From the IMG/VR virus record IMGVR_UViG_3300010403_000023: a stretch of 64,000 bases of DNA, one strand, 5' to 3'. Both the position numbers and the translations under genes were made by a program. Of this stretch, positions 685 to 63,530 are shown one piece after another (the first letter of the stretch is position 1; the number at the start of each line of letters is the position of its first letter). The DNA is from a virus. Its lineage: Duplodnaviria; Heunggongvirae; Uroviricota; Caudoviricetes. A model generated the notes under the pieces. That model was not told the origin of the DNA and made no database searches. It was given only the letters and a program-made list of their open reading frames with translations.

Positions 685-1098
685 ATGAATAAACTATTTA
701 TAAATTATGAACTTTCTTTAGCACTTAAAGAAATAGGTTATAATGAACAAGATATTGCATATTATCGCCTTTCATTTAAGGAAGAAAACGCGCCATTTAA
801 ACTAACTGAATTAGCTTATTTTAGAGAAAGATATGATAATCACAATTTCAGATTAGAAATACATAAATCAGCAGGCCATGAAGCAATATGTACAGCACCA
901 ACATATCAACAGGCTTTTAATTTCTTTATAGAAAAGAAGGTAATAATTTATCCTGAATATATTGATTGCAATTCTAAACCAATATACGTTATAAAGTGGC
1001 ATAATGGTATATGTCATAATGAATTCAGATCAGTTAATATTATTACATCTATTCAGAAATGCATATCCTTAGTAAAAGAAACGAATTCCCACCGCTGA
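685..1098 (+). CDS. hypothetical protein (137 aa)
   Basis: Clean ORF preceded by a TTTACTCACTCA box about 14 nt upstream; the stop TGA lies inside an IGR-1 copy. Confidence 0.55.
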   Translation: MNKLFINYELSLALKEIGYNEQDIAYYRLSFKEENAPFKLTELAYFRERYDNHNFRLEIHKSAGHEAICTAPTYQQAFNFFIEKKVIIYPEYIDCNSKPIYVIKWHNGICHNEFRSVNIITSIQKCISLVKETNSHR

Positions 1099-1165
1099 AC
1101 GGTGCTAACGCAAATCAAGCTGGAGTTATTAACTTCCGCTGGCTGCAAAAAGAATAACAATAAAA

Positions 1166-1234
1166 GGTTAACTGATGATGGCTTATTAATAGCCGAAACG
1201 CTACAACACTACAATGTGTAGCGTATTAACCAGG
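1166..1234 (+). repeat. hairpin repeat family H, copy 1 (GGTTAACTGA..GCGAAACGC-hairpin-GCGTATTAACCA)
   Basis: Near-identical to 1769-1826; contains the stem ACGCTACA/TGTAGCGT. Confidence 0.5.
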
Positions 1235-1271
1235 TAAATTATTATTCACTCACTCATAAAAACAAAATCAA

Positions 1272-1514
1272 ATGAAAAAGATCATGTTTATTGCCTATTT
1301 ATTATTGATCGCTGCATTATGCTTCGGTATCAGCGAAACACACGCCCAGGCTTGGACACCAAATAAAAAGTACATTAAAGCAAAGGATACCAGCAAGCCT
1401 GCAACTACAAGTAAATACCAGTGTTACGGCACTACTCAAAAAGGGGAACGCTGTAAAAGGCATGTACCGCAAGATCATGGCTTTTGCTATCAACATATTG
1501 AGCAGGCAAAATAA
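1272..1514 (+). CDS. small secreted protein with a C-terminal Cys/His cluster (80 aa)
   Basis: N-terminal signal-peptide-like MKKIMFIAYLLLIAALCFG..AQA; C-terminus has CYGTT..RCKRH..GFCYQH; ATTCACTCACTCA box upstream. Confidence 0.55.
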   Translation: MKKIMFIAYLLLIAALCFGISETHAQAWTPNKKYIKAKDTSKPATTSKYQCYGTTQKGERCKRHVPQDHGFCYQHIEQAK

Positions 1515-1549
1515 TTCATATTATTATCTCACATTTCAAACACAAAAAC

Positions 1550-1768
1550 ATGTCATTTAAGAAACAAATAATACTCATCATTATAATATCCTCCATTATA
1601 GGGTATTGGGGCGGCAATTACTACAAAGATCATTTTAGACCTGCTCCGCGTTCAGTCTACGTACAATTACAAACAGAAGAGCCATTACATAAGGGTGATA
1701 CCTTAATGGTCTATGAAGTAACAAAAGGCAAGCACTGTGATACTATTTGGATAGGATATTTAAACTGA
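1550..1768 (+). CDS. small membrane protein (72 aa, one TM)
   Basis: Hydrophobic N-terminus IILIIIISSIIGYWG; TTATCTCACATTTCA box upstream. Confidence 0.5.
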   Translation: MSFKKQIILIIIISSIIGYWGGNYYKDHFRPAPRSVYVQLQTEEPLHKGDTLMVYEVTKGKHCDTIWIGYLN

Positions 1769-1826
1769 GGTTAACTGACGAGCTTTTAATAAGCGAAACG
1801 CCATACAGTAATGGCGTATTAACCAC
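1769..1826 (+). repeat. hairpin repeat family H, copy 2
   Basis: GGTTAACTGACGAGCTTTTAATAAGCGAAACGCCATACAGTAATGGCGTATTAACCAC; stem ACGCCAT/ATGGCGT. Confidence 0.5.
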
Positions 1827-1839
1827 TAAAACAAACACT

Positions 1840-2088
1840 ATGGAAGAGGTAATAATGTTCCATTTAGACGGTGATAATGAGTGTTATTACTGCTTTGAAC
1901 AATACGAAATGCAATCATTTGCAGAGAATGAAGGTAAGGAAATTGAAAGCTGGGGGATAGCCGTAAATGGTATGCCAGATGGCACTTTACATATTAGTAG
2001 TCATCCGAGAATTTATATTAATTACACTTCGGATGATGAAAAGCATTTCGGAAAGAATAATAAATCTACTCCGGGCTTTGGAGATTAA
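1840..2088 (+). CDS. hypothetical protein (start adjusted to MEEVIMF.. after the hairpin repeat)
   Basis: The ORF track start at 1747 overlaps the previous gene and the repeat; the internal ATG at 1840 follows the hairpin. Confidence 0.45.
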   Translation: MEEVIMFHLDGDNECYYCFEQYEMQSFAENEGKEIESWGIAVNGMPDGTLHISSHPRIYINYTSDDEKHFGKNNKSTPGFGD

Positions 2089-2104
2089 GTATAAAGATCG
2101 TAGA

Positions 2105-2160
2105 AGTTCCGAACGATTAACGGAGCGTCGCAACCGCAACTAAATAGATATTCAGACTTT
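2105..2160 (+). repeat. IGR-1 copy (variant A core AACGGAGCGTCGCAA at 2119-2133)
   Basis: Core plus CCGCAACTAAATAGAT box; forms an inverted pair with the 2600-2676 copy around ORF 2189-2608. Confidence 0.7.
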
Positions 2161-2188
2161 GACTAACAAATATTTAAACAAATACAAC

Positions 2189-2608
2189 ATGAAAAACACT
2201 ACAAAAATACTCACTTTACTTTCTCTTACTGTAATAATAGGTCTCATGGTTGCAAATACCGCTTCAATTATTTCTCATGCTCTGCACCTTCAGAATTATT
2301 GGACTCCTGACTTTGAATACTATCCCATTTATTTAGCAATAGGACTAATTTGTGGGGGTGTTCCTGCGTTTGTTTTGTTTGCTGCTATACTGTTTCCTCT
2401 TCCGGTATTAAAGGCTGAAAATGAGAAGGGAGATATTAACCAGGCTATTAGCTGTGAGACTTACATATTTACTCCTGTTCCGGTTGTTTTAGTAGGACAA
2501 GAATTTGCAGGTATTGGATGCAGGTTAAGAGTAAAGCATGTTAAAGTAATAGACTGGGGTAATGCGGATCTATCAGGGTATGAATATGCTTATAACTTTT
2601 CTTTGTGA
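2189..2608 (+). CDS. membrane protein (2-3 TM helices)
   Basis: Hydrophobic segments ILTLLSLTVIIGLMV and PIYLAIGLICGGVPAFVLFAAILFPLPVL; the start is uncertain (2159 or 2189). Confidence 0.5.
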   Translation: MKNTTKILTLLSLTVIIGLMVANTASIISHALHLQNYWTPDFEYYPIYLAIGLICGGVPAFVLFAAILFPLPVLKAENEKGDINQAISCETYIFTPVPVVLVGQEFAGIGCRLRVKHVKVIDWGNADLSGYEYAYNFSL

Positions 2609-2676
2609 GCATAGGCTGGTAATGCTTTTAGGCGTCTGTTGCGACGCTCCGTGCAAGGTTCTGAATGCTATTTGAC
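2600..2676 (-). repeat. IGR-1 copy (variant A, reverse; core TTGCGACGCTCCGT at 2639-2652) with AATAGCATTC arm
   Basis: Reverse complement reads GTCAAATAGCATTCAGAACCTTGCACGGAGCGTCGCAA. Confidence 0.7.
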
Positions 2677-4677: not shown

Positions 4678-4767
4678 AGACTGTTTGATATAGTGAGTAT
4701 AAACCATATCTTTTTTCTCTATTTGTTTATTTTTGTTATCAGATGCCGGAATGCTAATAGGCGCCAG

Positions 4768-4784
4768 TGGCGATGGCACCGGGA
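4768..4784 (-). repeat. IGR-1 copy (variant B, reverse; GGCGCCAGTGGCGATGGCACCGG)
   Basis: Same flank as the copy at 12140-12160 (CCGGCGCCAGTGGCGATGGCACCGGTC). Confidence 0.65.
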
Positions 4785-4835
4785 TAGTTCAGTAATTCTA
4801 TTTTACTTTTCTCATGTTTTAAAAACTCATTTTTT

Positions 4836-5114: not shown

Positions 5115-5120
5115 TATCCT

Positions 5121-6107: not shown

Positions 6108-6165
6108 TTTTTGTACAAACTTTCTTGCAAATTGCAACAATTATTGTACATTTACGTACAAAAAA
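6108..6165. promoter_or_regulatory. operator-like cluster of short palindromes (TTGTACAAA, TTGCAAATTGCAA, TGTACATTTACGTACA) upstream of the RepL-like gene
   Basis: Direct reading; TGTACA and TTGCAA are 6-bp palindromes repeated within 60 bp of a 140-bp AT-rich non-coding region. Confidence 0.4.
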
Positions 6166-6698
6166 ATATGATTATGGCACAAGCTATATACACTAAAGAA
6201 ACACAAGACATGCAAACGGGAGAAGTAGTTAAACGGGAGATATTCCGTAAACAGGTAGCCAATACTGAGCAATTCGTCCGGGCCTTTATAGAAGATATGG
6301 GGTTACTGGCAAAATGCTCCGGGGCTGAAAAGGGGGTGGTTCTATGCAGTTTACAGTATTTGGACTACAATACTAACGAATTCATATTAACGCCTGAAAG
6401 AAGGGCTGCGATATGCGATTGTGGGCAAATTAAACCGGATACTGTATCCTCTGCCATTTCCAGGCTGCTAAAAAAGAATATCATCATAAAAAAAAGCGGA
6501 TCAACCTACATTCTTAATCCTAAGATATTCTTTTACGGCAAGGAATTGGAACGGGCAAAAATTGTGGAAACTACAATGGTTTATGTAATTGGTGGTGGTA
6601 AAACTAAACCTAATCCATTATCAAAACGCAGGTCATTTAAAATGGAAATTGCCGGCAGCAGTGATATAGATGCACGGAGCGTCGCCACTGAAGCCTGA
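6111..6698 (+). CDS. RepL-like or winged-helix DNA-binding protein (the start may be at 6168 or 6174)
   Basis: Paralogous to the 61738-62187 product (shared pattern ..L..L.Y......I..T...R.A.......V..A...L.KK.II.K....Y.LNP..F..G...ER); the C-terminal tail SVATEA is encoded by an IGR-1 copy. Confidence 0.5.
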   Translation: MYKLSCKLQQLLYIYVQKNMIMAQAIYTKETQDMQTGEVVKREIFRKQVANTEQFVRAFIEDMGLLAKCSGAEKGVVLCSLQYLDYNTNEFILTPERRAAICDCGQIKPDTVSSAISRLLKKNIIIKKSGSTYILNPKIFFYGKELERAKIVETTMVYVIGGGKTKPNPLSKRRSFKMEIAGSSDIDARSVATEA

Positions 6699-6735
6699 GT
6701 TATCCCAGAACCTCGACCAACAAATAATTAAATAA
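6670..6735 (+). repeat. IGR-1 copy (variant A; core ACGGAGCGTCGCC at 6674-6686; tail ..CGACCAACAAATAAT)
   Basis: Nearly identical to the copy at 10585-10650 (GAACGGAGCGTCGCCACTGAAGCC..GACCAACAAAAAT). Confidence 0.75.
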
Positions 6736-6796: not shown

Positions 6797-7078
6797 ATGA
6801 AAAAGAAGCCAGTCGAAAACTACTATACTATTCGCCTTAACCCAAATACCACACAGGGCGGATTTTTCAGAATATACCAGGCAAGGAACGGGAGCATACA
6901 GCTATGTATGGGTAACGGACATATTACTCTTACAATGCAAAATATTTCCGATCTACACCTTGACAGCACACTTTATGAGCTGGAAGAATTTGATACTGTA
7001 GATTTCGATAAGTTTTACAATACGGAAAGGCACAATGAACCACAGTTGAACGGTGCCATCGCAAACCAGGCCCAATAG
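6797..7078 (+). CDS. hypothetical protein (93 aa)
   Basis: ATTCACTCAAATAATTTC box upstream; the C-terminus NGAIANQAQ and the stop are provided by an IGR-1 variant B copy. Confidence 0.5.
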   Translation: MKKKPVENYYTIRLNPNTTQGGFFRIYQARNGSIQLCMGNGHITLTMQNISDLHLDSTLYELEEFDTVDFDKFYNTERHNEPQLNGAIANQAQ

Positions 7079-7105
7079 ATAAACTGGTTCCTGCTGCAAA
7101 AACTT
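7045..7105 (+). repeat. IGR-1 copy (variant B; core AACGGTGCCATCGCAA at 7049-7064; CAATAGATAAA box; CTGCTGCAAAAA tail)
   Basis: Full-length modular element. Confidence 0.8.
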
Positions 7106-7674: not shown

Positions 7675-7704
7675 CATGATAACAGTCTAATAGCTGACTG
7701 ATTC

Positions 7705-7735
7705 CATCATGGAGCGTCGCAAATCAAGCTTAATC
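7705..7735 (+). repeat. IGR-1 copy (variant A with ATGG; core ATGGAGCGTCGCAAATCAAGCT)
   Basis: Core plus AATCAAGCT box. Confidence 0.65.
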
Positions 7736-7769
7736 CTTATTCTTTAGCTAAGTAACAAAATCTTAATGT

Positions 7770-7982: not shown

Positions 7983-7987
7983 ATACT

Positions 7988-8040
7988 TTTTGCAGCCAGC
8001 GGGAGCCGATCTATCAGCCTGATTTGCGATGGCACCGGTC
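7988..8040 (-). repeat. IGR-1 copy (variant B, reverse, full length: TTTTGCAGCCAGCGGGAGCCGATCTATCAGCCTGATTTGCGATGGCACCGG)
   Basis: The reverse complement matches the forward full element. Confidence 0.8.
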
Positions 8041-8104
8041 CACTTCATCACTACTTTCAATTACATTTTAAAACAAAAAACTTTCACATACAAACACACC
8101 CAAA

Positions 8105-17089: not shown

Positions 17090-17428
17090 CTATTTAATTT
17101 CAGTGGCGACGCTCCGTTCGTCACCTTCACTACTGGCAGATTTTCTCGCCTCAATTAATTTTTGAAGACGGTTCACCTTTTCTTTTTCTTCTTTATTAAA
17201 TTTATCAAATTCGATCATCATTTTTTGCAACTGTCCATAAAAATTCGTTTTCCGGCTTCTGATAAGGATAGCATGTGCGGGATCAATTCCATTAGTTTCG
17301 CACCATTTTATAAATTCTTCTTGAATTTTTAATTGGGCATCCGTAGGCTTTTTGGGACGCAAATCAGGTTTGCTATTTGCGTCATCTAATGCTTTCTGAA
17401 TTGACATACCTATTAGTGCGCCTATCAT
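17090..17428 (-). CDS. hypothetical protein (112 aa); the C-terminal ..ERSVATEIK is encoded by IGR-1
   Basis: The ORF 3' end reads through a reverse IGR-1 core. Confidence 0.5.
   Translation of the reverse strand: MIGALIGMSIQKALDDANSKPDLRPKKPTDAQLKIQEEFIKWCETNGIDPAHAILIRSRKTNFYGQLQKMMIEFDKFNKEEKEKVNRLQKLIEARKSASSEGDERSVATEIK
17102..17135 (-). repeat. IGR-1 copy (variant A, reverse; GGCGACGCTCCGTTCGTCACCTTCACTACT)
   Basis: Flank shared with the 10935 copy. Confidence 0.7.
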
Positions 17429-17664: not shown

Positions 17665-17704
17665 CTTTTCACAATTACCAACTTTTGTGGTAAATATTTT
17701 TGAA

Positions 17705-17760
17705 AGAAGTGATGGTGACGAATGGAGCGTCGCACCTGTGGCTCAATAGATAAGATTAGC
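17705..17760 (+). repeat. IGR-1 copy (variant A; GAAGTGATGGTGACGAATGGAGCGTCGCACCTGTGGCTCAATAGATAAGATTAGC)
   Basis: Shares the 5' flank GAAAGAAGTGATGGTG with the 12530 copy. Confidence 0.75.
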
Positions 17761-17775
17761 TAAGGGCAAATAATT

Positions 17776-20013
17776 TTACTGATACAGTACACCTACTGCT
17801 AATTGTCTTAATGCCATGTCTGGCTTTTGAGTTGCTTTGTCAAGGAATCTTTGACGCCAGCCTAAGTATGCATTAATTCCAAGTAGTCCAATGAGATAGC
17901 AAACTCCGCTATCGTATTCTCTGGTATTCTCTGGTTCAAAATTCATAAGGTCCACTATTACATCACGGCTGTACAGAAATTCTACATTATCCATGAAAGA
18001 GTAGTCATTTATGTGCATCATCCCTGCTGCGATATATTCCCCTATAGTATCAGGACCACCGTTGACTGAACGCTGGGAAGTGAACGGCTTTTGTTTAGCC
18101 CATTCATTGTATGGTTCCAGTATGCCTGTATCTTTATTAACCTGTATCAGGAAGTTGGCTAGCCCCCATTCCTTTAATCGTGTTGCTAATGCCGGTGCGT
18201 TACATTCTATCAGGACATAGCAGCCAAAATAAAGGATAGTCTGAACCACATGCATCAGTGTATCTTTTGGATTTTCTGTTCGGTAATGGTACTCTACTAT
18301 CATGCGTTTGTTCGTTACCTTCTTATTAAACATGGAGTTTAATTCTTGATTTGGCAGAATAAATACCTGCATGGAGTTCTTGCTGCCAACAGCTACGTCT
18401 TTTGCCGCGCTATACTGCGTAGGATCTATGGACATATAAAATGGACTGCCCGGATTAGGCATTAACCTTCCTTTCTTATCCGTGAGCATTTTATTTACGT
18501 GCTGATCCAGAAAACTTTTGGGCGTCCACTCAGGCATATACCATTTCCACAGACCATGCTCTTTTCCCGACATTTTTTCCGTATCGGTCACAGGACACAC
18601 CAATGAAACACCTGGGAATTTATATATATCTCGTATTTCGTCTATTTCTGGAGGAACAGACCACTTAAAATTAAAGTCCATGTATGAGAACGCACCTACA
18701 TTATCTTCTTCGGTAAGTTCGTTTAATTTTGTTGACAATCGTAAATTATCAAATATGGACGCCTCTCCAGCTCCTTCCAGCCAACAATCGGACTCGCTTT
18801 GAGGGTATTGGCGACGATATGATCGTAGTGCCGCAGGATCGTCTTTCTTGGCCTCCATTTGCGCATTCACCACCTTTAATATCTTAGATATAACTGGCTT
18901 ACCATAAATATCGCAGCCTCCAAATATACCATCATAAATAGTAAGCGCCATGCAGATTAATTCAGATTTTGTCGTGCCAGTCTCGGGGTTTATTGTTCGT
19001 AATTTACTTTCGTAATATATCTTTTTTGCAAGCCTAAAACTTTTATCATTAGTATCCGATACGTAGTGGGTGTATATAACATATCCAATGCGAAGTAAGC
19101 CCAGCATTACAGTAGCTATGACATTATTATGCAGAACGGTGAGATCATAACTTTTATCAAGTTTTATTTTACTTTGCTCATCAATATGCGCCACTCTTCT
19201 TTTAGTTCCATCAAATCCATTCCATACGGTAGCTACGGTTTGTATAATAGTTTCCAACGGTTCTGTATTTGATTTTCTCTGGCCTCCACTTTTGGCGCCT
19301 TTTCCGGTATCTTGAAAATATATTGCACTTAAATTATTCCGGTATTCCGGCTTTAAGATTTCCGGTAATCTACGCGCAGCATACAGCACATATCCCATAT
19401 TTGTCTTAGTAGCCTCATCTTCCTTGGTACTCATAATGCTATAATTAGCAGACCGATGAGTTATCGCATCAATCAGCATTAGCAATTCCTGAAACATGGT
19501 AATACCCGTCTTCTTGGGCTTCACTACGTCGCCTCCCTTGGCTACCGTAGTAGTTTTGCATATTTCTATGAAATACGCATAGGTTCGCTGAAATTGACAA
19601 TAGTATCCATACAGGCTTTCCGGTTCCACCTCATTGTAGCAATCGTACATTTGCGCCCACATAAGCACCCCGTAGTGGCCACCAGTTAAGTATGTAGGCT
19701 CCCCATCATTATAAAACCATACGCCATCAAGCATCCGATCAATTTCCCTGTCCCTTAATTCCTTTAATTTAATGGTGTCAACAACGCTTAATGATACTAA
19801 TTCCTTCCCCTCATACTTAGTCGCTTTTGCGTTATCCTCTACTCCTCTGTGCCAATCAAAAAAGAAAGAAGGTATATCTTTAATCATTTCTGCCCTTTTC
19901 CAGTATTGCTCTTTCTTGGGTAGATTATGAAAAAATATTTCTTTCTTTGTGGGCCTAGGTGGGAGTTTATAAACATGTTCCTCTCCAACCTTTATATATT
20001 CTTCGTTATCCAT
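17776..20013 (-). CDS. putative terminase large subunit (745 aa)
   Basis: Size, position next to a ParB-like gene, and a C-terminal region (CYVLIECNAPALATRL) reminiscent of the T4 gp17 nuclease segment ECPVYIELNSTG; no canonical Walker A was identified by eye, so the call is tentative. Confidence 0.4.
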   Translation of the reverse strand: MDNEEYIKVGEEHVYKLPPRPTKKEIFFHNLPKKEQYWKRAEMIKDIPSFFFDWHRGVEDNAKATKYEGKELVSLSVVDTIKLKELRDREIDRMLDGVWFYNDGEPTYLTGGHYGVLMWAQMYDCYNEVEPESLYGYYCQFQRTYAYFIEICKTTTVAKGGDVVKPKKTGITMFQELLMLIDAITHRSANYSIMSTKEDEATKTNMGYVLYAARRLPEILKPEYRNNLSAIYFQDTGKGAKSGGQRKSNTEPLETIIQTVATVWNGFDGTKRRVAHIDEQSKIKLDKSYDLTVLHNNVIATVMLGLLRIGYVIYTHYVSDTNDKSFRLAKKIYYESKLRTINPETGTTKSELICMALTIYDGIFGGCDIYGKPVISKILKVVNAQMEAKKDDPAALRSYRRQYPQSESDCWLEGAGEASIFDNLRLSTKLNELTEEDNVGAFSYMDFNFKWSVPPEIDEIRDIYKFPGVSLVCPVTDTEKMSGKEHGLWKWYMPEWTPKSFLDQHVNKMLTDKKGRLMPNPGSPFYMSIDPTQYSAAKDVAVGSKNSMQVFILPNQELNSMFNKKVTNKRMIVEYHYRTENPKDTLMHVVQTILYFGCYVLIECNAPALATRLKEWGLANFLIQVNKDTGILEPYNEWAKQKPFTSQRSVNGGPDTIGEYIAAGMMHINDYSFMDNVEFLYSRDVIVDLMNFEPENTREYDSGVCYLIGLLGINAYLGWRQRFLDKATQKPDMALRQLAVGVLYQ

Positions 20014-20689
20014 GCATACCTATTTTAATTCGTCTGGCGTTTTCCATGCACACACCGTCCTTGACTGCATTAATTTTTTTATCAATGAATTGGAACTTGA
20101 ATTCTTTCAGTTCATTTATAGCTTTATAAGTGCCTTGATTTCGTATTTCTTTTTCCAGTGCTGTCCTCTTTTTAGAGAGTAGTTCGTATTGGAAGACAGC
20201 CTTAGTGTGCTCCTTTGTATCATAAAAAAATATTATTTCATCAGGTTTTCCTTCTTTTTTGCTTTTATTCTCCTTAGTCATGTACTCCCGATTGGTAATT
20301 GCCAAATTCAGGTCTTCCAGTTGAATATCTATTAGTTTTAGCGCTTTGAATAGTTGGCCGGCGAACTGGATAAGGTATTGTGTTGTTGCTAATCGCACTT
20401 CACGGTCGGTAAGTTCCATTAGGTTCTTACGCATGAAGTCTGGTATCTGAAGGTATTCACATATCCCTTCTTTTTCTTCTTTGCTGTCTTGTCGTAGGAT
20501 TAATAGTGGAGAATCTTCACTGTATGCACATAGAAGGTAGAGTATCTTTTGCTTTGCTTCTTCGGTGGATTGAGAATTATGAAAGATAGGATCAAATATG
20601 GTTAGGTTTATACTATGGAGGTATCCCTGTAGTTTATCTGCAGGTTCGTTCTTTAATAGTAAGCAGTCGTTAAGTATTGATGTTATCAT
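20006..20689 (-). CDS. hypothetical protein (227 aa)
   Basis: ORF start overlaps the TerL-candidate stop. Confidence 0.55.
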   Translation of the reverse strand: MITSILNDCLLLKNEPADKLQGYLHSINLTIFDPIFHNSQSTEEAKQKILYLLCAYSEDSPLLILRQDSKEEKEGICEYLQIPDFMRKNLMELTDREVRLATTQYLIQFAGQLFKALKLIDIQLEDLNLAITNREYMTKENKSKKEGKPDEIIFFYDTKEHTKAVFQYELLSKKRTALEKEIRNQGTYKAINELKEFKFQFIDKKINAVKDGVCMENARRIKIGMHG

Positions 20690-20699
20690 GCGTTTTATT

Positions 20700-20765
20700 T
20701 TTGCAGCAGAGTTTTTGTTTTTCTATTCAGCTTGATTTGCGATGGCGCCGGTCGGCAACATCACA
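20700..20765 (-). repeat. IGR-1 copy (variant B-like, reverse; TTTTGCAGCAGAGTTTTTG..TTCAGCTTGATTTGCGATGGCGCCGG)
   Basis: Full element in reverse orientation. Confidence 0.8.
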
Positions 20766-20774
20766 TTGTGCCAT

Positions 20775-23700
20775 TTATTTATTTACATCGGGTAACCAGT
20801 CCCCTCCGGCACCTGCTCCAGTTGTGGATTGATGAGAGTTTTTGACGTTCAGTTGCTCCCGCAGGAATGGCACCCCACTTTTAATGTGCTCTCCTATTGT
20901 TTTAGGAGTAGCGCGTTTGTTTTCGGGCGCAATCATCTTTCTTATTGGATTTCCTTCATCTGCCGGGTCGGTAACTTTAGCCAGATACGTTATGAGCGCT
21001 GGATCTACTGTACTCTTGGCGAGCTCACCTAAATAGTAATCTCTTTCATGCTTTGAGCCAAATAATTTAGATACCCTTACCGGTTGGCTGGCTAATGGTA
21101 TATCATTCACCAGCCCGGATGCCCCAGCCCACAGCCCTTCACTTATTCCCTGCGGTTCTCCTTTCACAACTTTATCCTTTACCCTTCTTACGGTCGCGCC
21201 GATCTGCATAGCCTGGAATATAGGTGCCTCAATAAACCATGCGGGTATCTTCGCACCGAAAAGTTTCAATCCTAATGCTTCTGCATCATCCTCATCTCTT
21301 TTCTGCCCTGGCTGATAGAATCCTCCGAAATTTTGTGGATTGAAGTAACCTAAAGCCAGTGCAGCTATTCCTAAACTGCCTTTCTTTAAATTACGCAGAA
21401 TGATTTCTTTCTCGTCTGGGGGTAAGTTTTCTATTCCACCGGTAAAAGCCGCATGAATTAATTTAGCTGCCCCAACCGGTACACCATATACATGTGTACC
21501 TATTTCGGCTGCTATGTTTGTAGGCACCTTAACAAAGGGCACCAACCATTGAAGGCTACTGGATATGAGTTTGCTGGGCGCTTTGCCTGTTTTCGGGTCA
21601 ACTTGATCGAAATGATTAATGAGTTTACGCCAGCCTTCCGCTACTTTATTATCCTGCATAAATATAGCTCTATTGGCGTCCTTATAGGAATCCATTAATA
21701 TTGATGTCTGGACCATCGGATCTGTAACATCCACGCCGTTAGCTATGTTGCGCCGGAACCTCCTCTCAATAGAACGTTCAAATATAGTCCTCTTAATAGG
21801 CGCCTTTGCCGCACTGTGGAGTTGCCCAAAAAAATCTATTGCTTCAGGTGGTAATTCGCCGGCCTTACCGAAAAGGACATCTAATTGTGATTTGCCTTGG
21901 CTTTTTTTACTCATTATCTCACTTGCGTCTTTGAGCCCGAGCATTAGCCCATTTTTGTATGCTTTTGCGGTTTCATTGATATTCAGACCTCCACCTTCCC
22001 CTATGGCACCCTTAGCTAATTGAGGTAATATAGCAGAATAAGCGCCACCGACAATATCTTCAAGTGGAGTAGTGGTCAACCTGGTCATTCCAGCCATCAT
22101 CAACTTACCCATCGTAAGGGGATTGGACAGTTTAAAAGCACGTTGCCATTTAATAAACCAATTTTGGTACTTAGCTACTTTGGATAACTGCTTTTCCTGG
22201 TCCCTCTTTAGGTTTATGTCGTATTGCGCCTTAGCCCGGTCTGCGTCTACTTTTAATCTTACCGCTTCACGATCCAATCTACCATTACTAAATAGAGCCG
22301 AAGCATCCGTTGCCTTCTTTCTTTCCGGAGATATATCCAATATGCCGGAATCCATTACAGCCTTATTTATTTCTTTTTCAAGATCCTGCTCATCAATTCC
22401 GGGATTAGCGTTACTTGTTTGTGCAATTGCTTTTTTTATTAAATCTACCAATTGCTCTCCTTTTTCTACACCATATGCTATCACATCTATAGCGTCCGCA
22501 ACCATATGCGGAGTAATAGGAATGGGTGATGAATAGGCTTGATTTTTGCTGGCTTGCCTGATCCGTTCAGCCCATTCACGAAGTTTTGTTGATGCGGTTT
22601 TTTTGTTTTTTAATAGTCCTGTCATTGCCTTACGCTGCAGGTCTATTATTTTCGACTCTGATTCTTTGATATAATTATCAAAAGCCTCCTGTGTATCTTT
22701 TATGTTTTTATGTAACTTCTCAATATCTTCCTGCTGAGTGTCGCTGAGTGATTTACCTTCATTTGCCGTAGCCCTTTTTTCGGAAATCATATTCACAAGA
22801 GAATATTTCCGATCCACCATCATGCGCCGGGAAGCAAGCCCCCTGGCGTTTTCCGTACCTACGGCTTTGTTGATGTCGTAAATCTGCTGCAATTCATCGA
22901 GTACACGCGCTTTTGAAACTTTATTCTCTATGATAGCTCCCTGATTTCCTTCATCTGCGGCTTTGTTGATATTATCATTAAAATTTTGCAATTCTATCTC
23001 CTTGGTATTTTGGTGATGAAGGAGCACAGCATTTTCTACATCAGTTAGAGGACGTGCTTTTTGAGATAATTCCTCAATCAGGTTAAGTGCTGTCTGTGGA
23101 TTGTCTTCTATTTTTTTCTTCGCCTCGTCCCATGTTTCGCCAAATTCTTTGTGCGCTGCGGGAATCTCCTCGCCCAGACCAAATTGCTCCCTTCTCAGGC
23201 GCGTAGTAGCATTTTTTATGCTGGTAATATCCTGTTGAATATGCCAGTCCAGATAGTTAAGCACTTTAGCTTTTGCATTTTCGGACACAGTATCAGAAAC
23301 AGGATTTCCGTCTTTATTTTCAATAACTTCATCCATTATTTCTTTAACGGCATCTTCATGAGATATTTTGCCAGAAAAAATGTCTGCCAGGATGTCCTTT
23401 GCATATTCTTCATTGTCTATTGAGAGTGATGGTTCTGCTTTAAGCGTCTCCGCTTTGAACATTCCGGATTCTTTTAACTTCTCAATATCTTTATCAGAAA
23501 GTTCTTTAGCCTCTTCGCCATATTTTTCTTTTGTTTGACGCAGGCCACGGCGTATTGCTATTTCCAAATTACCTACACCGCGCAAGCCTTCAACTATCCT
23601 TGCAACAAGAAAATCAGATACATGATCCGCTATTTTTGGAGATATACCTAATATTGTAGCGTATGATGCACCTTCATGTTCTTTTTTGTTTTTCGCATAT

Positions 23701-35974: not shown

Positions 35975-36050
35975 TTGTTAGCCATCATTCTTATCGCTTG
36001 GCATCGTCCCTTGCGACGCCCCGTTTTAAGGTTCCGAACTACTATCATCT
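35975..36050 (-). repeat. IGR-1 copy (degenerate variant A, reverse; core TTGCGACGCCCCGT at 36011-36024)
   Basis: Left boundary of cassette C; arm shared with the 33900 copy. Confidence 0.8.
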
Positions 36051-36205: not shown

Positions 36206-36235
36206 AAAATATACAAAGTTTAATCCTTAAATGCA

Positions 36236-36295
36236 GATCAACGGAGCGTCGCAAATCAAGCTGATAGCTATTCTCCGCTGGTAACAAAAATATTT
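36236..36295 (+). repeat. IGR-1 copy (variant A; core at 36239-36253; AATCAAGCTGATAGCTATTCTCCGCTGGTAACAAAAATATTT)
   Basis: Right boundary of cassette C. Confidence 0.85.
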
Positions 36296-48157: not shown

Positions 48158-48221
48158 GGTAGGTTGATTTTAATGCTTTTAAAATGTTTTTGTTTCCATC
48201 TTTTTATCGCTTATCATCTTG

Positions 48222-48240
48222 ATTTGCGACGCTCCGTTCT
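48222..48240 (-). repeat. IGR-1 copy (variant A, reverse; CTTGATTTGCGACGCTCCGTTCTGC)
   Basis: Flank TCCGTTCTGC..CATTTCT.CTACAAT is shared with the copy at 56300. Confidence 0.7.
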
Positions 48241-48265
48241 GCTACATTTCTACTATCGCCTTTTC

Positions 48266-52299: not shown

Positions 52300-52384
52300 A
52301 AGAAAACAAAAATAGTTTTGTTACTTGCTTTATTTGAGAAAAAGTATTTATTTTGTGTGTAGATTTACATTTACTATTTTTGTT

Positions 52385-52460
52385 GGTAGGGGTAAGTAAT
52401 TCTATTTCCCGTCCGTTGCGACGCTCCGTGCAAGGTTCGGGTTTCAATTTAACTTTTTAT
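52385..52460 (-). repeat. IGR-1 copy (variant A, reverse; core at 52425-52438; GCAAGGTTCGGGTTTCAATTTAAC arm)
   Basis: Near-duplicate of the 30860-30920 copy. Confidence 0.85.
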
Positions 52461-52465: not shown

Positions 52466-52909
52466 ATGATAGTATGGTTAGGCATTCCTGATAAAAAAGA
52501 AATTTACGATGCTATCCGTGAATTTGAATATTTCGATTCATCATTAAATAAAATAAAAGAATTCAATTTTGCCGGGATGGGGTTATTTCGGATGATGATG
52601 GGCGAAGAACATAAAAAGTATGATTTGGAGCATAGCATTGTTCGGCAACTTAAAGAAGTTGAAGACATTCTTCAATCCTATAATTCAGAACAAGATGCGG
52701 AAAATAATTACGGGAATGACCAAAATAAAAGATGGGAAGATTTATGCGATGATCCCTCAAAAATATTTACAACAGACCTTTTAAAAATACCTTTACTAAG
52801 TGAAGAGCAGTTTAAATTTTGGTTGGAAATATATCAAACTATTAAAGAATATGCAATGTTAAATAGTTCCCCGAACCCCGCACGGAGCGTCGCAACAGGC
52901 GCTGAATAG
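52466..52909 (+). CDS. hypothetical protein (147 aa), first gene of the chaperonin operon; C-terminal NSSPNPARSVATGAE from IGR-1
   Basis: The C-terminal peptide is shared with the cassette A and B ORFs. Confidence 0.5.
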   Translation: MIVWLGIPDKKEIYDAIREFEYFDSSLNKIKEFNFAGMGLFRMMMGEEHKKYDLEHSIVRQLKEVEDILQSYNSEQDAENNYGNDQNKRWEDLCDDPSKIFTTDLLKIPLLSEEQFKFWLEIYQTIKEYAMLNSSPNPARSVATGAE

Positions 52910-52935
52910 CCGCAACCAACCCTGCTGCAAAAAGA
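52861..52935 (+). repeat. IGR-1 copy, most complete forward instance (AAATAGTTCCCCGAACCCCGC-ACGGAGCGTCGCAA-CAGGCGCTGAATAGCCGCAACCAACCCTGCTGCAAAAAGAAA)
   Basis: Contains both arms, the core and the tail. Confidence 0.9.
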
Positions 52936-52944: not shown

Positions 52945-54663
52945 ATGATCACTCTCCCATACATAGACCACAAAGAGAACAGGAACATAAACCTTCTTAT
53001 AGTAGAACCCTACCCCAAAGAAGCCACAGTAACAGCCGGTGACATATTTATACCTGCTAATATCGGAGATGAATGTGAAGAAGGTAAAGTAATATCTGTC
53101 TGTCCCAGTTCTGAATTTTCTCCCGGTGACCGTGTGGTGTACAAAAAGATGGACCGTGACAAAAAAGAAAACTACGAGACGGTAGAAATGGACGGTAAAA
53201 CCTACGACATCATAGGTGAAAAAGAAGTGTGGGAAGTAAACGGCAAGCCATACAATCGGATATTCGTAGAACCTCTCTCTGTGATAGAAATGGCAGAAGA
53301 CGGCATTGTGCTTCCACAGTCTGCCCAAGGGATTACCCAGAAAGGCATAGTTTATAAAGCACCAGATAATTTCTTTGTAAAAAAGGGAGATACCGTGGAG
53401 TACCGTAAAAACTCCATGCGGATATACTACACTGCGAACGAAAATGGTGTTGATTATGATATTCTATACGAACCGGACATCTTCCTGGTAAACGATAAAG
53501 TATCTCCCCACAAGATCATTGTAAAGATTGACCTTGCAGCCCAGCAGATAAAGCGCCAGACGAATGAGATGGGCATATCACTCTCTCCATTGTTTCAGCG
53601 AATGACCAGGATGCTACAGTACGGCGAAGTCACGGAAATTGGCGAAGAGGCACAAAAGATATACCCGAAGTTGGTTGAAGGCGATACGGCCATCCTGCAT
53701 CACAGCATAGAATACGACGACTACCGGGTATTAAAAATGGATAAAGGAAAGCATGGCACCTTCATTTATGAATATCGTGTTATTAACTGCTTCGACGTTA
53801 CCCACCGGGAGATATTTGGCCGTATATCCAACAAAAAGTTATACGGAAAAATACCTAACTTCAAGATCATTCCCTTCCATAAAAACATCTTCCTAAAATG
53901 GGATTTCGAACTACTTGAAAAAGAGAATTTAGAATCCCAGTTCATTGATATTAATTTCAGCCTGGATGATTGTAAAAACAAAGAAGACCTTGAAAGTACC
54001 GTTACCGCAAAGCGAGAAGCATCCGTAAGAATGTATAAAAGCAAGTGGCAAGGATATCAGGCTGACCTTGCACTTTACAATCCGATGATAAAGCAGGATA
54101 ATGACAAGATGCGGGAAATTGGCGCTAAGATAGATGCACTGAAAAGGGAGGCTGAATCGAATGCAAGATACGTGCAGCAGGATCATTTACTCCGGTGCAA
54201 AATAGCATTTCCGCTTACTATCAACAATGAGGTAATCACCACGTACAAACATCTGTATCCGATCAACATTTTAGGTAAAAAATATCTTATTGCTCACAAA
54301 GACCTTTTAATAGCAAACCGCATGGAAAATACAACGACAGGGTGGCTACCAATAGCCGATCAAGTGCTGGTACAGCCAGTGGAAGAAAAATCAGATACTC
54401 GTATTTTTATTCCTGACAGCGCCAGGGAGAAGCCGCAACAGGCACTCGTAATCGCCGTAGGCAAGGATGTTGACCCTAACGAAATACAGGAAGGAGATAC
54501 CATTTTTCACCGCAAAATATCCGGCGTAGAAATGAACCTGGATGGCACCAATTACCTGATGCTGAGAAGAAATGATATTTTCGCTTCTAACCGTAACATA
54601 AGAAAGATGGAAGAAGAACAAATGTTGAATGGTGCCATCGCCACAGACGGCGATAAACAATAA
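52945..54663 (+). CDS. multi-domain co-chaperonin: about five tandem GroES/Cpn10-like domains in one 572-aa polypeptide
   Basis: Domain 5 (aa 466-547) WLPIADQVLVQPVEEKSDTRIFIPDSAREKPQQALVIAVGKDVDPNEIQEGDTIFHRKISGVEMNLDGTNYLMLRRNDIFA aligns along its length with E. coli GroES; domains 1 (aa 14-100), 2 (104-183), 3 (188-285) and 4 (about 305-457, with an insertion) repeat the same pattern (G.V..VG, GD.V.Y.K, DG..Y.I....DI). Confidence 0.8.
   Translation: MITLPYIDHKENRNINLLIVEPYPKEATVTAGDIFIPANIGDECEEGKVISVCPSSEFSPGDRVVYKKMDRDKKENYETVEMDGKTYDIIGEKEVWEVNGKPYNRIFVEPLSVIEMAEDGIVLPQSAQGITQKGIVYKAPDNFFVKKGDTVEYRKNSMRIYYTANENGVDYDILYEPDIFLVNDKVSPHKIIVKIDLAAQQIKRQTNEMGISLSPLFQRMTRMLQYGEVTEIGEEAQKIYPKLVEGDTAILHHSIEYDDYRVLKMDKGKHGTFIYEYRVINCFDVTHREIFGRISNKKLYGKIPNFKIIPFHKNIFLKWDFELLEKENLESQFIDINFSLDDCKNKEDLESTVTAKREASVRMYKSKWQGYQADLALYNPMIKQDNDKMREIGAKIDALKREAESNARYVQQDHLLRCKIAFPLTINNEVITTYKHLYPINILGKKYLIAHKDLLIANRMENTTTGWLPIADQVLVQPVEEKSDTRIFIPDSAREKPQQALVIAVGKDVDPNEIQEGDTIFHRKISGVEMNLDGTNYLMLRRNDIFASNRNIRKMEEEQMLNGAIATDGDKQ
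54628..54642 (+). repeat. degenerate IGR-1 variant B core (AATGGTGCCATCGCC) encoding the C-terminal NGAIATDGDKQ of the multi-GroES protein
   Basis: Direct reading of the sequence. Confidence 0.45.
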
Positions 54664-54708
54664 AAAGTTCGGACAACAATTTTTAAAAAATAAATTCACA
54701 AATAACTT

Positions 54709-56259: not shown

Positions 56260-56273
56260 AATTCTTTTGCTGC

Positions 56274-56309
56274 CGGCGTCGCAAATCTATTGAGCTTGAT
56301 TTGCGACGC
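56274..56309 (+). terminator. 12-bp perfect hairpin GCGTCGCAAATC-tattgagctt-GATTTGCGACGC built from two inverted IGR-1 half cores, 15 nt after the groEL stop
   Basis: Direct reading of the sequence; not followed by a clean T-run. Confidence 0.45.
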
Positions 56310-56354
56310 TCCGTTCTGCGGCATTTCTTCTACAATATTTTCTCATACTAAGAG

Positions 56355-56430
56355 ATAGCATTCCGAAGTTGACCGGTGCCAACGCCACTGAAATTCAATA
56401 GCTGCAACCAACTCTGCTGCAAAAAATTAA
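56355..56430 (+). repeat. IGR-1 copy (variant B; AGATAGCATTCCGAAGTTGACCGGTGCCAACGCCACTGAAATTCAATAGCTGCAACCAACTCTGCTGCAAAAAATT)
   Basis: Full modular element; its tail abuts the stop of the 1655-aa gene. Confidence 0.85.
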
Positions 56431-61394: not shown

Positions 61395-61454
61395 GTAGCA
61401 GTAAGGCTATATGGGGGTTAAAGTTAGATAATTTTAATTGATAAGGGAAAATTC

Positions 61455-61530
61455 TTTTGCAGCAGAGTTGGTTGCGGATATTTAGCGGATTTGCGATAGC
61501 ACCGTTCAGCGGTGGGATTGCTATGCACTT
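61455..61530 (-). repeat. IGR-1 copy (variant C, reverse; TTTTGCAGCAGAGTTGGTTGCGGATATTTAGCGGATTTGCGATAGCACCGTTCAGCGGTGGGATTGCTATG)
   Basis: Near-duplicate of the 8560-8640 copy; full element. Confidence 0.85.
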
Positions 61531-61621
61531 ATAATTATAATGATAGATAGAGAGGTTTTAAAAGTAAGTAATTGACTGTCAAAAAACTACATTCAAAATC
61601 GTTCACCAACCTTGCGCTTAG

Positions 61622-61643
61622 TTGTTCATTATACAATGAACAA
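61622..61643. promoter_or_regulatory. operator-like palindrome TTGTTCATT-ATAC-AATGAACAA with an extra half-site TTGTTCATTA at 61705-61714, upstream of the second RepL-like gene
   Basis: 9-bp perfect inverted repeat read directly from the sequence. Confidence 0.5.
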
Positions 61644-61737
61644 CTCACCAGCAGTCTAATGAATTCATGGGAATAATGAAAGAAAGTCTTGTTTAATTAA
61701 ATATTGTTCATTAATTTCGTGAAGTAAAGCAAAAATA

Positions 61738-62187
61738 ATGAGCGTAGCATATTTAAAGACAGGACTTACGGACAGACTGCATATCGTGGATGGTGGCACC
61801 GGAGAGGTGCTTCACGAATCGGTTAAAAAGTATAAATATCTTGCCAAAAGTAAGGAAGAATTCTACATCATTTACACCTCTCTTATTGGCGTATTTAAAC
61901 AACTCAGTAACCCAGAAGTGCGCGTGTATTGCTATCTTCTGGAAAACTACCAGGTAGGAACAAACATAGCCATCACCAACAAGCTACGGGCACTTATTGG
62001 TGTTGACTTGAAACTCAATCCCGGCACCGTGGCAAATGCGCTGGGATTTCTTACAAAAAAGAAGTTGATATACAGCAAAGAGCGTGGCCTGTATAAACTC
62101 AATCCAAGATATGCTTTTCAAGGATCAACCGCAGAGCGTAATAAAATGCTGAAAATGATCTTGGAGGTAGAGTGCCCGGATTGTTAA
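61738..62187 (+). CDS. RepL-like or winged-helix DNA-binding protein (149 aa); paralogue of the 6111-6698 product
   Basis: Shared pattern with the 6111 product (YCYLLENY.., KLRALIGV.., VANALGFLTKKKLIY.., LNPRYAFQG..ER). Confidence 0.55.
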   Translation: MSVAYLKTGLTDRLHIVDGGTGEVLHESVKKYKYLAKSKEEFYIIYTSLIGVFKQLSNPEVRVYCYLLENYQVGTNIAITNKLRALIGVDLKLNPGTVANALGFLTKKKLIYSKERGLYKLNPRYAFQGSTAERNKMLKMILEVECPDC

Positions 62188-62197
62188 AATATTTTTT

Positions 62198-62398
62198 ATG
62201 AAGATAAAAATTGAATTAGAACTGGAAGATGCAATGGAACTGGTTACGCTTCATGTAGCAGCCATGCAGAATATCACTCAAAACATAGGAGATAACCCAT
62301 TGCTTTACTCCAAACTGGCCAGGGTTACAAATACATTTCTAAATGAGGTAGTTGATAAAACGCCGGACGAAATGAAGATTAAAATACTTACACGATGA
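62198..62398 (+). CDS. hypothetical protein (66 aa)
   Basis: Stop overlaps the next start (ATGA). Confidence 0.4.
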   Translation: MKIKIELELEDAMELVTLHVAAMQNITQNIGDNPLLYSKLARVTNTFLNEVVDKTPDEMKIKILTR

Positions 62399-62970
62399 AC
62401 TATCAATATTACTTTCCGGAAGATGGGGAATGTAGTTTGAATAATCCGATTGTATGGAAACGCTTATGCGTATATATTCGGAGAACTATCCGCTTCACAA
62501 AATGGATAAAAAACAAACATTTTATTGAAGCAAACGAAGTGCTGATAAGCATTGCAGAGCAGTTGAAGGGAATTGATCCGGCAACTTATGGAAGCAAGGA
62601 GATGGAGGACGCTATTACTTTCTTGATTAAGAAAATAAACAAGCAAATAGGCCGTGAATGGTGGAAATATTTAAAGGTAGAATTGCCTGAATTTTTTGAT
62701 GAAATGCGAATGACACAAAAGATTATCATTAAACAAAACAGGGAAATCGGGAAATATAAATATCCAAAAACGGTCAAAAAAAATCAACAACAATACCGGG
62801 ATGATGTAAGTGATGGTTATATCCTGGGATGCGTGTATAATAATTTAAAAAACACTTCTGGAATCAGGTATTCATTTGATGAGATACGCCAACAATTTCC
62901 TCATTTAATTGAACAGAAAAAAGAAACCATTTTAAAGAAAAGAGCAAAAAAGAAATCCGATGTGCTATGA
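62395..62970 (+). CDS. hypothetical protein (191 aa)
   Basis: Clean ORF. Confidence 0.55.
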   Translation: MNYQYYFPEDGECSLNNPIVWKRLCVYIRRTIRFTKWIKNKHFIEANEVLISIAEQLKGIDPATYGSKEMEDAITFLIKKINKQIGREWWKYLKVELPEFFDEMRMTQKIIIKQNREIGKYKYPKTVKKNQQQYRDDVSDGYILGCVYNNLKNTSGIRYSFDEIRQQFPHLIEQKKETILKKRAKKKSDVL

Positions 62971-63256
62971 AAAATTTCTTGATCAACTCTACGAAGATCG
63001 CATGGAGCAAAAAAGAAAGTTAGAGGCATCCAGAATGAAGCATAGGCAAAGTATATTGGATAGGCAGAACTCAAAACATGCTCCAGCAGCAGAAGTAATT
63101 AATTCAATGCCAGATACACTCCCGATGGACTTAGTAAAATTGAAGGAACTCGTTTCTTACAACTTGAAAATAGGTCAGTATTTTCCTGAAAGAATGAAGG
63201 ATGTAAGGATTAATTTAAAGGCAATCAAGAAATTTATTGAAGATAATAAATTATAA
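62960..63256 (+). CDS. hypothetical protein (98 aa)
   Basis: Overlapping start with the previous gene. Confidence 0.5.
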   Translation: MCYEKFLDQLYEDRMEQKRKLEASRMKHRQSILDRQNSKHAPAAEVINSMPDTLPMDLVKLKELVSYNLKIGQYFPERMKDVRINLKAIKKFIEDNKL

Positions 63257-63464
63257 AACGTATGGACGTTAAAAAACCCATCAATCTTTCATACATTGTC
63301 TGATTGTTGGTACATTTTAACAAAAAAGCCGAGTAGCATCTTACTCTATAATGTTCCACGATTTTTTATGTTAATATAGACTTTTCTCCGTTGGAAAGAC
63401 AAAGATAAATATTGTTTCAGTAAAACCAAATTTATTTACAAAATATTTTTCATCAGGGCAAGAA

Positions 63465-63530
63465 CGCTGACCGGTGCTATCGCAACGAAGTTCCATAGCC
63501 GCAACCAACCCTGCTGCAAAAAGAACTTAA
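63465..63530 (+). repeat. IGR-1 copy (variant C; core ACCGGTGCTATCGCAA at 63469-63484; CCATAGCCGCAACCAACCCTGCTGCAAAAAGAAC)
   Basis: Full modular element. Confidence 0.85.

Follow-up and report, generated by a model that had tools for sequence, protein, structure and literature searches.

Several described families of short dispersed repeats bear comparison with an element that punctuates 64,000 nt of tailed phage DNA (IMG/VR record IMGVR_UViG_3300010403_000023, Caudoviricetes; this whole stretch is referred to here as the window). Rickettsia palindromic elements (RPEs), Correia elements and MITEs (miniature transposable elements with inverted repeats) possess terminal inverted repeats or palindromes together with target-site duplications, and RPEs are known to insert in frame into genes. 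Mycobacteriophage stoperators and start-associated sequences are 13-17 bp long, are oriented with transcription and serve as phage-specific repressor or translation signals. Repetitive extragenic palindromes (REPs) have a GT(A/G)G head, are imperfectly palindromic and co-occur with a RAYT (Y1 transposase) gene lying between two REPs (PMC2817692). Phage early stem-loops (PeSLs) are defined by a strong sigma-70-like early promoter followed by a stem-loop terminator (PMC2839356); they are co-directional with genes, and mini-circles are excised via direct copies (PMC2839356, PMC4122927). The pdif sites of Acinetobacter plasmids are 28 bp long and consist of two 11-bp arms in a partial palindrome around a 6-bp spacer, to which known recombinases bind (PMC6449649).

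The repeat in the window is an asymmetric element of about 76 nt that is also found in the chromosomes of Chitinophagaceae, and it is unusual among dispersed intergenic and cassette-boundary repeats in being non-palindromic, invariant across a host family, present in phages at about 30-fold the density of the sampled host loci, and alternating in orientation. Like REPs and bacterial interspersed mosaic elements (BIMEs), it is extragenic, high in copy number, found in either orientation with respect to genes and arranged in alternating doublets or clusters (PMC2817692); its consensus is conserved across related host species, and in some host loci it lies in mosaics with CCCGATAGCTATCGGG hairpins. 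It differs from them in having no palindrome, no fold signal and no RAYT-like gene seen between paired copies in the host loci retrieved, and whereas REPs are largely species-specific, the core of this element is family-invariant and far denser in phages. With PeSLs it shares the character of a short conserved intergenic repeat among small accessory genes that marks exchange points between unrelated sequences, but it has neither promoter nor stem-loop, its neighbours alternate, and it is a host chromosomal repeat as well. [quoted passage not shown] RPEs, Correia elements and MITEs are likewise short repeats at gene ends that supply C-terminal residues and stop codons and sometimes lie in frame within open reading frames (ORFs), but no terminal inverted repeat, palindrome or target-site duplication is found here. 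Stoperators and start-associated sequences are also asymmetric short repeats present 20-35 times per phage genome at gene junctions; the present element has five times their length, shows no dependence on orientation and is common to the host chromosome.

Iterated nhmmer searching to convergence recovered 38 copies between 1075 and 63522 of the window, divided equally between the strands (19 plus, 19 minus). The original prediction, made by a model from the letters of the window, had reported about 40 copies in both orientations, and its coordinates agree with ours. The enrichment that it asserted was confirmed, with 6 exact matches to ACGGWGCNNTCGCAA and 12 to ACGGWGCNTCGCAA where 0.00 are expected from 100 dinucleotide shuffles, and with zero matches to the core patterns in shuffled sequence as against 38 copies by profile in the window; a relaxed regular expression over the window found 19 copies. 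The modular layout that it had described (upstream arm, variable core, downstream box and tail) is evident in the 38-copy alignment. A head box of AATAG type stands about 20 nt upstream of the core, which takes the form ACGGAGC-GTCGCAA (GGAGC-G) in 21 copies and ACGG/CCGG-TGC[CT]ATCGC[AC]A (GGTGC[CT]A) in 17, the two types differing by a 1-nt indel; a second AATAG(ATAAA) box follows about 10 nt downstream, and after it CTGCTGCAAAA or an ACAAAA tail. The invariant part is bipartite (TGAACG, 2-4 nt, GC(G/CA/TA)TCGCAA), flanked on each side, at a distance of about 21 nt, by AATAG-type boxes, and the element ends in a GCTGG...CAAAA tail. The 20-bp core is GATGAACGGAGCGTCGCAAC, with the variant GGTGCCATCGC, and within GTTGAACGGAGCGTCGCAAC the self-complementarity of the core, as read from the sequence, is confined to the outer 4 nt. 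Pairwise identity among the window copies averages 50%. Near-identical flanks had been claimed for several pairs, and one of these, 31054 and 36217, is indeed 94% identical, while the other named pairs reach 63-74%; the recent copy and paste that had been read from them is contradicted by the low mean identity and by the retention of copies at orthologous host sites. We found no description of the element in Rfam, in the literature searched, where the core strings gave chance matches only, or in 50,697 deposited phage records, against which megablast and tblastn of the window gave no match; the element was found instead in the chromosomes of Chitinophagaceae.

An exact scan with the 17-mer TGMACGGAGCGTCGCAA over 185,579 species genomes, one per species, gave at least 120 matches. 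Among the matches listed, almost all belong to Chitinophagaceae (genera Chitinophaga, Segetibacter, Flavihumibacter, Terrimonas, Niabella, Flavisolibacter, Puia and Ilyomonas), and several contigs of one metagenome-assembled genome often carry the 17-mer. The profile derived from the phage recognises the full architecture of about 76 nt in the host loci, beyond the 17-mer. Nearly all host copies are intergenic (119/127), with neighbours that include genes for carbonic anhydrase (CA), ComEC, purH, TerC, ABC transporters and Fe-S assembly, and a distribution restricted to prophages was ruled out by the housekeeping nature of these flanking genes. Their orientation follows no single relation to the adjacent genes (28 co-directional, 40 antisense, 13 convergent and 8 divergent), and the element also occurs in spacers resembling 3′ untranslated regions (UTRs) and in convergent spacers.

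Conservation at orthologous spacers was assessed at the purH locus of Segetibacter aerophilus and four relatives, in which purH is 88-96% identical. The copy occupies the same spacer in the same orientation between ComEC and purH in 5/5 loci, between CA and ComEC in 4 and upstream of the LUD gene in 3, and every compared locus that shares the junction keeps the copy. Overall column identity at these spacers is 63-67%, while the columns that never vary are concentrated in GATGAACG..GCGTCGC.A, in the AATAG box and in the tail. The Segetibacter spacers also contain a third form of the core, GAACG-NNN-TGCGTCGCAA, and because of it the constant parts can be narrowed to two half-sites, TGAACG and GC(G/YA)TCGCAA, 2-4 nt apart. 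On these alignments the host copies are old, vertically inherited and constrained rather than decaying insertions. Five host loci (L102, L145, L174, L148 and L140) have the element as part of a mosaic in which REP-like hairpins (CCCGATAGCTATCGGG, CCCCGACAAACATCGGGG) also occur, and the same mosaics carry a GGGTAAACTGCGACGC module with an inverted core half-site; neither the CCCGATAGCTATCGGG hairpins nor the GGGTAAACTGCGACGC module was found in the phage window.

The window copies are listed below with their extents and E-values from the iterated nhmmer profile search, together with strand, core type (A or B) and relation to the local genes; L187 is the closest phage relative in the collections.

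1075..1151, plus strand: core ACGGTGCTAACGCAA (type B variant), overlapping the 3′ end of ORF 685..1098; E=1.6e-11
2095..2171, plus strand: core ACGGAGCGTCGCAA (type A), with an ATG 17 nt past the tail; E=7.9e-13
2601..2676, minus strand: type A, antisense to the local genes; E=4.7e-13
4731..4806, minus strand: core CCGGTGCCATCGCCA (type B), antisense; E=9.8e-11
6650..6725, plus strand: type A (TCGCCA), encoding the C-terminus ...ARSVATEA and stop of the RepL-like ORF 6111..6698; E=3.2e-11
7026..7102, plus strand: type B, encoding the C-terminus ...NGAIANQAQ and stop of ORF 6797..7078; E=4.6e-13
7684..7760, plus strand: core ATGGAGCGTCGCAA, profile match limited to the 5′ two-thirds; E=1.3e-05
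7987..8062, minus strand: type B, antisense; E=2.1e-13
8565..8640, minus strand: type B (GCTATCGC), antisense; E=2.9e-12
9655..9728, plus strand: core ACGGAGCGTCGCAC, the weakest of all copies; E=7e-04
10030..10106, minus strand: type B, antisense; E=7e-13
10566..10640, plus strand: type A (TCGCCA); E=1.1e-13
10898..10973, minus strand: type A (TCGCAC), antisense; E=3e-12
11622..11698, plus strand: type B (CCAACGC), with an ATG 9 nt past the tail; E=2.9e-09
12107..12183, minus strand: type B, antisense; E=1.2e-08
12527..12601, plus strand: type B, with an ATG 8 nt past the tail; E=3.9e-14
12957..13033, plus strand: type B, the final copy of the plus-strand block, followed by a terminator-like hairpin; E=1.4e-15
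14167..14242, minus strand: type B, sense, with the ATG of the ParB-like gene 8 nt past the tail; E=1.2e-15
16168..16240, plus strand: type A, antisense, in the opposite orientation at the matching L187 junction; E=9.3e-11
17066..17141, minus strand: type A, sense, encoding ...ERSVATEIK and stop of ORF 17090..17428, the L187 site being occupied as well; E=5.1e-13
17698..17773, plus strand: type A, antisense, just after the large terminase (TerL), with a copy in the same orientation at the same L187 site; E=3e-09
20698..20775, minus strand: type B (GGCGCC), sense, with an ATG 8 nt past the tail, the L187 site holding type A; E=4.7e-12
24377..24454, minus strand: type A, in frame within the 2748-aa ORF (...EVERSVATGAQSDKQ...); E=1e-13
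25824..25900, minus strand: type B, in frame within the 2748-aa ORF (...EPTGAIATEAAK...); E=4.1e-09
30848..30924, minus strand: type A, sense, ending a 56-aa ORF before ATG 30833 and forming a heads-inward pair with 31054; E=1.7e-11
31054..31127, plus strand: type A, antisense, 94% identical to 36217; E=3.2e-11
33902..33978, minus strand: type A, sense, in a heads-inward pair with 34115 and a small ORF between; E=6.6e-11
34115..34191, plus strand: type B, antisense; E=7.4e-15
35973..36050, minus strand: core ACGGGGCGTCGCAA, sense, paired with 36217 and a 59-aa ORF between; E=1.6e-08
36217..36289, plus strand: type A, antisense; E=3.6e-12
48186..48261, minus strand: type A, sense; E=2.1e-09
52378..52454, minus strand: type A, in a heads-inward pair with 52857 flanking ORF 52466..52909; E=2.3e-12
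52857..52933, plus strand: type A, encoding ...NSSPNPARSVATGAE and stop, with the ATG of the GroES-fusion gene 11 nt past the tail; E=1.3e-12
54605..54681, plus strand: type B, encoding the C-terminus ...NGAIATDGDKQ and stop of the GroES-fusion, upstream of GroEL; E=5.7e-08
56264..56338, minus strand: type A, in a head-to-head doublet with 56350 (11-nt gap) between convergent genes; E=7.1e-14
56350..56425, plus strand: type B (CCAACGCC), the second arm of the doublet; E=6e-12
61454..61529, minus strand: type B, sense, upstream of the 1655-aa ORF; E=2.1e-12
63447..63522, plus strand: type B, inverted partner of 61454 (86 nt, 73% complementary); E=1.5e-09

The copy at 56264-56338 has two private features, a perfect 12-bp inverted repeat (GCGTCGCAAATC ... 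GATTTGCGACGC) and a second box that is replaced by a reversed core half.

With one copy per 1.7 kb, the element occupies a large share of the non-coding DNA of the window, being present in 28 of 38 intergenic gaps of at least 40 nt and covering 39% of intergenic bases. The statement that copies sit at almost every gene junction of the early block (0.7-13 kb) was overstated, since they occupy 15 of its 24 junctions, albeit 14 of the 17 gaps of at least 40 nt, and a further 21 copies lie beyond it among the structural genes. That the copies cannot be a set of unidirectional promoters, as had been argued, is borne out by their occurrence in both orientations, about 40% of them being antisense to the local genes. 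Orientation is nevertheless ordered among the copies themselves: it alternates in 26/35 intergenic neighbour pairs of the window (p = 0.003) and in 58/75 pairs over five related phages including the window (one-sided binomial p = 1.1e-6), with 8/8 in L187, 15/16 in the related phage L189 and 11/13 among host loci with two copies. Single genes are enclosed by heads-inward or tails-inward pairs, and doublets occur both head-to-head, with a gap of 11 nt in the window (56264/56350), and tail-to-tail, in L189 (18192/18271), for either of which long imperfect hairpins are possible. As neighbours alternate, recombination between adjacent copies would be expected to invert a cassette rather than delete it. 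The copies also shape the ends and beginnings of genes. Most close at least two incoming frames and about half close all three (21/38 copies read forward, as against 37% of shuffles), while for 20 of the 38 tails the start codon (ATG) of an ORF follows within about 80 nt downstream, and A-rich tails stand 6-40 nt ahead of many start codons.

Relatives identified by their terminase are contigs of 85-95 kb whose TerL is 67-77% identical to that of the window, the closest being L187 at 77%, and within 9-22 kb of each we found 9 copies in L187, 7 in L188, 20 in L189 and 11 in L190. A search of viral contigs with the protein encoded at 29025..30833 found no relative. Gene-content breakpoints at the repeats, which the original prediction anticipated, were observed in two sets of genomes. 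The window and L187 share copies at three junctions (before the gene at 20006..20689, after the terminase and at 17066), and the genes between the second and third of these are unrelated; an extra copy lies between two genes in L187 only, where the adjacent gene differs as well. At one shared junction the copy is in opposite orientation, and copies at the same junction can differ in core type. Between relatives the elements reach 80-91% identity, as against 65-72% nucleotide identity for the shared genes. The second set comprises L046, L024, L058 and L065, in which the shared DNA consists of two element blocks of 110-124 nt only (89-95% nucleotide identity), with unrelated intervening and surrounding genes. 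Because genes run into the shared block, otherwise dissimilar proteins of this group have their last 33-36 residues in common, as in the unrelated proteins of L046 (1627-2259), L024 (2227-2700) and L058 (806-1159), which share an end of about 35 residues (...KLNSEQNPERSVAT...ADKQIKQNPFGG). Across IMG/VR a 15-mer of the core marked 66 loci, 16 of them with the extended element and mostly in phages without protein similarity to the window, and the type B core gave 43 matches, 3 with the element.

Element-bounded cassette arrays of the relatives (L189 19568-19867; L190 22051-22238; the contig of P0005) carry anti-defence-like genes, among them those for an Acb2/Tad1 hairpin protein, an AcrVA2-like protein, Dam, Sequestin and PAPS reductase. 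L190 also has an IS1595-family transposase gene at 17250-18188; the ends and flanks of this insertion sequence (IS) are unrelated to the repeat, and the candidate that the element is a MITE derived from it was rejected.

An intercistronic signal acting in polycistronic RNA, either as a processing or stability site with inverted neighbours as RNase III substrates or as a translation leader, would suit several features of the phage. A Bacteroidota-type promoter at 485-516 is the only one ahead of the 12-kb early plus-strand block and a single terminator-like hairpin follows the block, so that all 17 early copies would be co-transcribed; neighbours in alternating orientation could pair; the A-rich tails precede many starts at short range; and folding of the window copies is slightly more favourable than that of shuffles (minimum free energy, mean z of -1.2 and -0.9 on the two strands). 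Host copies, however, fold no better than shuffles (-0.4 and -0.2, mean about -0.3), and their orientation, like that of the phage copies, is unrelated to the direction of transcription. Neither for the 38 phage copies nor for 126 host copies did RNAalifold predict a consensus structure, whichever strand was used, and an all-vs-all column covariation test found no pair with convincing excess complementarity, so that the alignment of copies for RNA covariation that had been proposed gave nothing. Adjacent inverted copies have the same core type in 14 cases and a different one in 12, by a tally from the alignment, and their mean identity is 0.51 as against 0.50 over all pairs; with core types and flanks that do not co-vary between neighbours, an RNA duplex between them was rejected. 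Searched over the 64 kb, Rfam yielded nothing at gathering score; a permissive scan of 30700-36400 gave chance-level hits only (E up to 5), and ARAGORN found no tRNA or tmRNA in the window. Hairpins are formed only by doublets or individual copies and not by the element family, and a structured RNA, ribozyme or tRNA-like element was ruled out on the combined results of these tests. We consider an RNA-level role quite improbable. The likeness to PeSLs drawn in the original prediction holds for the analogy of a cassette-shuffling junction and fails for the rest. Were each copy an early promoter and stem-loop driving or insulating the adjacent small gene, its intergenic position, its abundance in the accessory early region and its coincidence with gene-content breakpoints would be accounted for, but sigma-70-like sites in 400-13200 number 44 as against 43.4 in shuffles, terminator-like sites in the early block 13 as against 10.1 expected, and the conserved part of the element contains none of the 5 Bacteroidota promoters (TTTG-N17-23-TAnnTTTG) of the window. 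With no stem-loop in the element, many copies antisense and the same element in host 3′ UTR-like and convergent spacers, a PeSL-type cassette is very improbable. A promoter of sigma-70, Bacteroidota or extracytoplasmic function (ECF) type and an intrinsic terminator, the latter among the roles suggested earlier, were rejected for want of enrichment, for wrong spacing and for an orientation unrelated to genes. Two landmarks of transcription adjoin copies: a GC-rich hairpin with a T run (AAAACCGCCTTCACTGTTACATGAAGGCGGTTTCTGTTT; 13034-13075), between the convergent plus and minus gene blocks and right after copy 12957-13033, probably terminates the early unit, and a Bacteroidota-type promoter at 52352-52382 heads the second plus-strand block, its -7 box overlapping the tail of copy 52378-52454. 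Targets of dCas12f/sigma-E RNA-guided transcription were dismissed, as that system addresses specific loci and not a dispersed repeat (PMC13472631).

Several unrelated phage proteins end in residues encoded by the element, which raises the question of a coding module that adds a C-terminal peptide tag (...NS.QNPERSVAT... or ...NGAIAT...) to many phage proteins. Phage ORFs that pass through the core are always in the frame ...RSVAT... or ...GAIAT..., because the TAG of the head box and a TGA adjacent to the core close the other two; with one frame of three left open, the 6 of about 19 upstream ORFs that read through the core match the chance expectation of one third. In 126 host copies no frame is consistently open, the core types differ by a 1-nt indel and an in-ORF copy of L189 is read in another frame, so that a tag is scarcely credible, and a small-peptide gene was rejected along with it. 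A selfish non-autonomous mobile element of the MITE or RPE kind, mobilised in trans by a host or phage enzyme and tolerated at junctions, with cassette boundaries and alternation as side effects, is the strongest rival reading, though somewhat unlikely. Copies lie in frame within disordered linkers of the giant virion gene; two different frames are used, and homologues do not have copies at the same positions. The linkers of these homologues are unalignable, and the insertion edges of the in-ORF copies are not definable. The copy peculiar to L187, the opposite orientation at another shared junction, the change of subtype at the same junction and the identity of copies across phages (80-95%, where shared genes are 65-72% identical or unrelated) all fit insertion, and the head-to-head and tail-to-tail doublets recall BIMEs and the REP doublets known as REPINs. 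Against mobility, no terminal inverted repeats, target-site duplication or hairpin were found, and by inspection the flanks of paired copies are complementary and not duplicated, since A runs follow both tails. Identity among the copies of a single genome is only 50%, and orthologous host spacers retain copies with an invariant core, which points to selection or continual homogenisation and not to decay. No transposase or RAYT-like gene lies between paired copies in the fetched host loci, and the sole IS seen in a relative, IS1595 of L190, has unrelated ends.

The reading that we favour, tentatively and at somewhat less than even confidence, is that of a protein-recognised DNA element of host-family origin that the phages use as a standard junction between genes and a point of recombination. 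The element would be a dispersed, non-palindromic intergenic repeat family native to Chitinophagaceae chromosomes, which a lineage of phages of about 90 kb, plus a small number of unrelated phages from these hosts, appears to carry at about 30-fold higher density. Being independent of orientation and without structure, it would act as double-stranded DNA and would be neither a promoter nor a terminator nor a structured RNA. The asymmetric bipartite core, invariant across the family and kept at orthologous spacers, argues for recognition by a conserved protein, and the conserved parts may represent the footprint of a sequence-specific protein, either of the host or common to host and phage. In the phage the element forms a standardised gene junction, closing reading frames and providing an A-rich leader before the next ATG. 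As a pattern seen in genome comparisons, the copies are also conserved sites at which neighbouring genes have been exchanged between genomes, and as the elements persist around replaced genes they are likely crossover points for cassette exchange, which might proceed by homologous or by site-specific recombination. Some observations weigh against this account. Pfam scans of about 45 window proteins found no binding protein, recombinase or transposase, and the core, being neither a palindrome nor a dif-like site, suggests no known recombinase class. Breakpoints at copies are in part trivial, because copies occupy most junctions, and the subtype differences at junctions shared by the window and L187 could reflect turnover of insertions instead of recombination. 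The host density of about one extra copy per 56 kb of host loci, to which the phage density is about 30-fold higher, was estimated from ascertained 8-kb loci and not from whole genomes. A more specific proposal, which we regard as unlikely, is that the element is the recognition site of a Chitinophagaceae DNA transaction system (a site-specific recombinase or transposase, or a ParB/Noc-like protein) and that phage accessory genomes are arrays of single-gene cassettes between alternating copies.

The window is part of a tailed phage genome, with a large terminase (17776..20013), a tail-fibre-like protein and an SPFH protein. The DNA binders recognised by the same Pfam scans are confined to two RepL-like winged helix-turn-helix paralogues (6111-6698 and 61738-62187) and one ParB-like protein (13106..14215), and these RepL-like and ParB-like proteins are candidates for binding the repeat. 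Two giant ORFs, at 20775-29021 (2748 aa) and 56427-61394 (1655 aa), had no Pfam match, while homologues of the 2748-aa protein in related phages match His_Phos_1 and ddrB-ParB. The gene at 52945-54663 encodes a protein of 572 aa in which the C-terminal domain is Cpn10 (GroES), and a full GroEL homologue follows (54709-56259). The product of 7144-7674 is an Imm5-like immunity protein; an AAY/AAAY repeat, specified by a GC-rich tandem repeat of 9-12 nt (7467-7619), makes up its C-terminal third. Start codons of the window have A-rich leaders and no Shine-Dalgarno sequences, as expected for Bacteroidota.

A repeat that extends throughout the Chitinophagaceae with its core under purifying selection implies a conserved sequence-specific factor, and for uncultured phages of this family the 17-mer offers a strong marker by which to predict the host. 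On the more specific proposal of a host DNA transaction system, an integron-like or dif-module-like exchange system would be at work in phage genomes, and host genes could be captured, since the chromosome carries hundreds of compatible sites. If the element is indeed a site of cassette exchange, small genes could be swapped without breaking their neighbours, through a junction common to other phages and the host chromosome, and a lineage of large Bacteroidota phages would thereby keep its accessory genome, which in relatives includes anti-defence-like genes, exchangeable.

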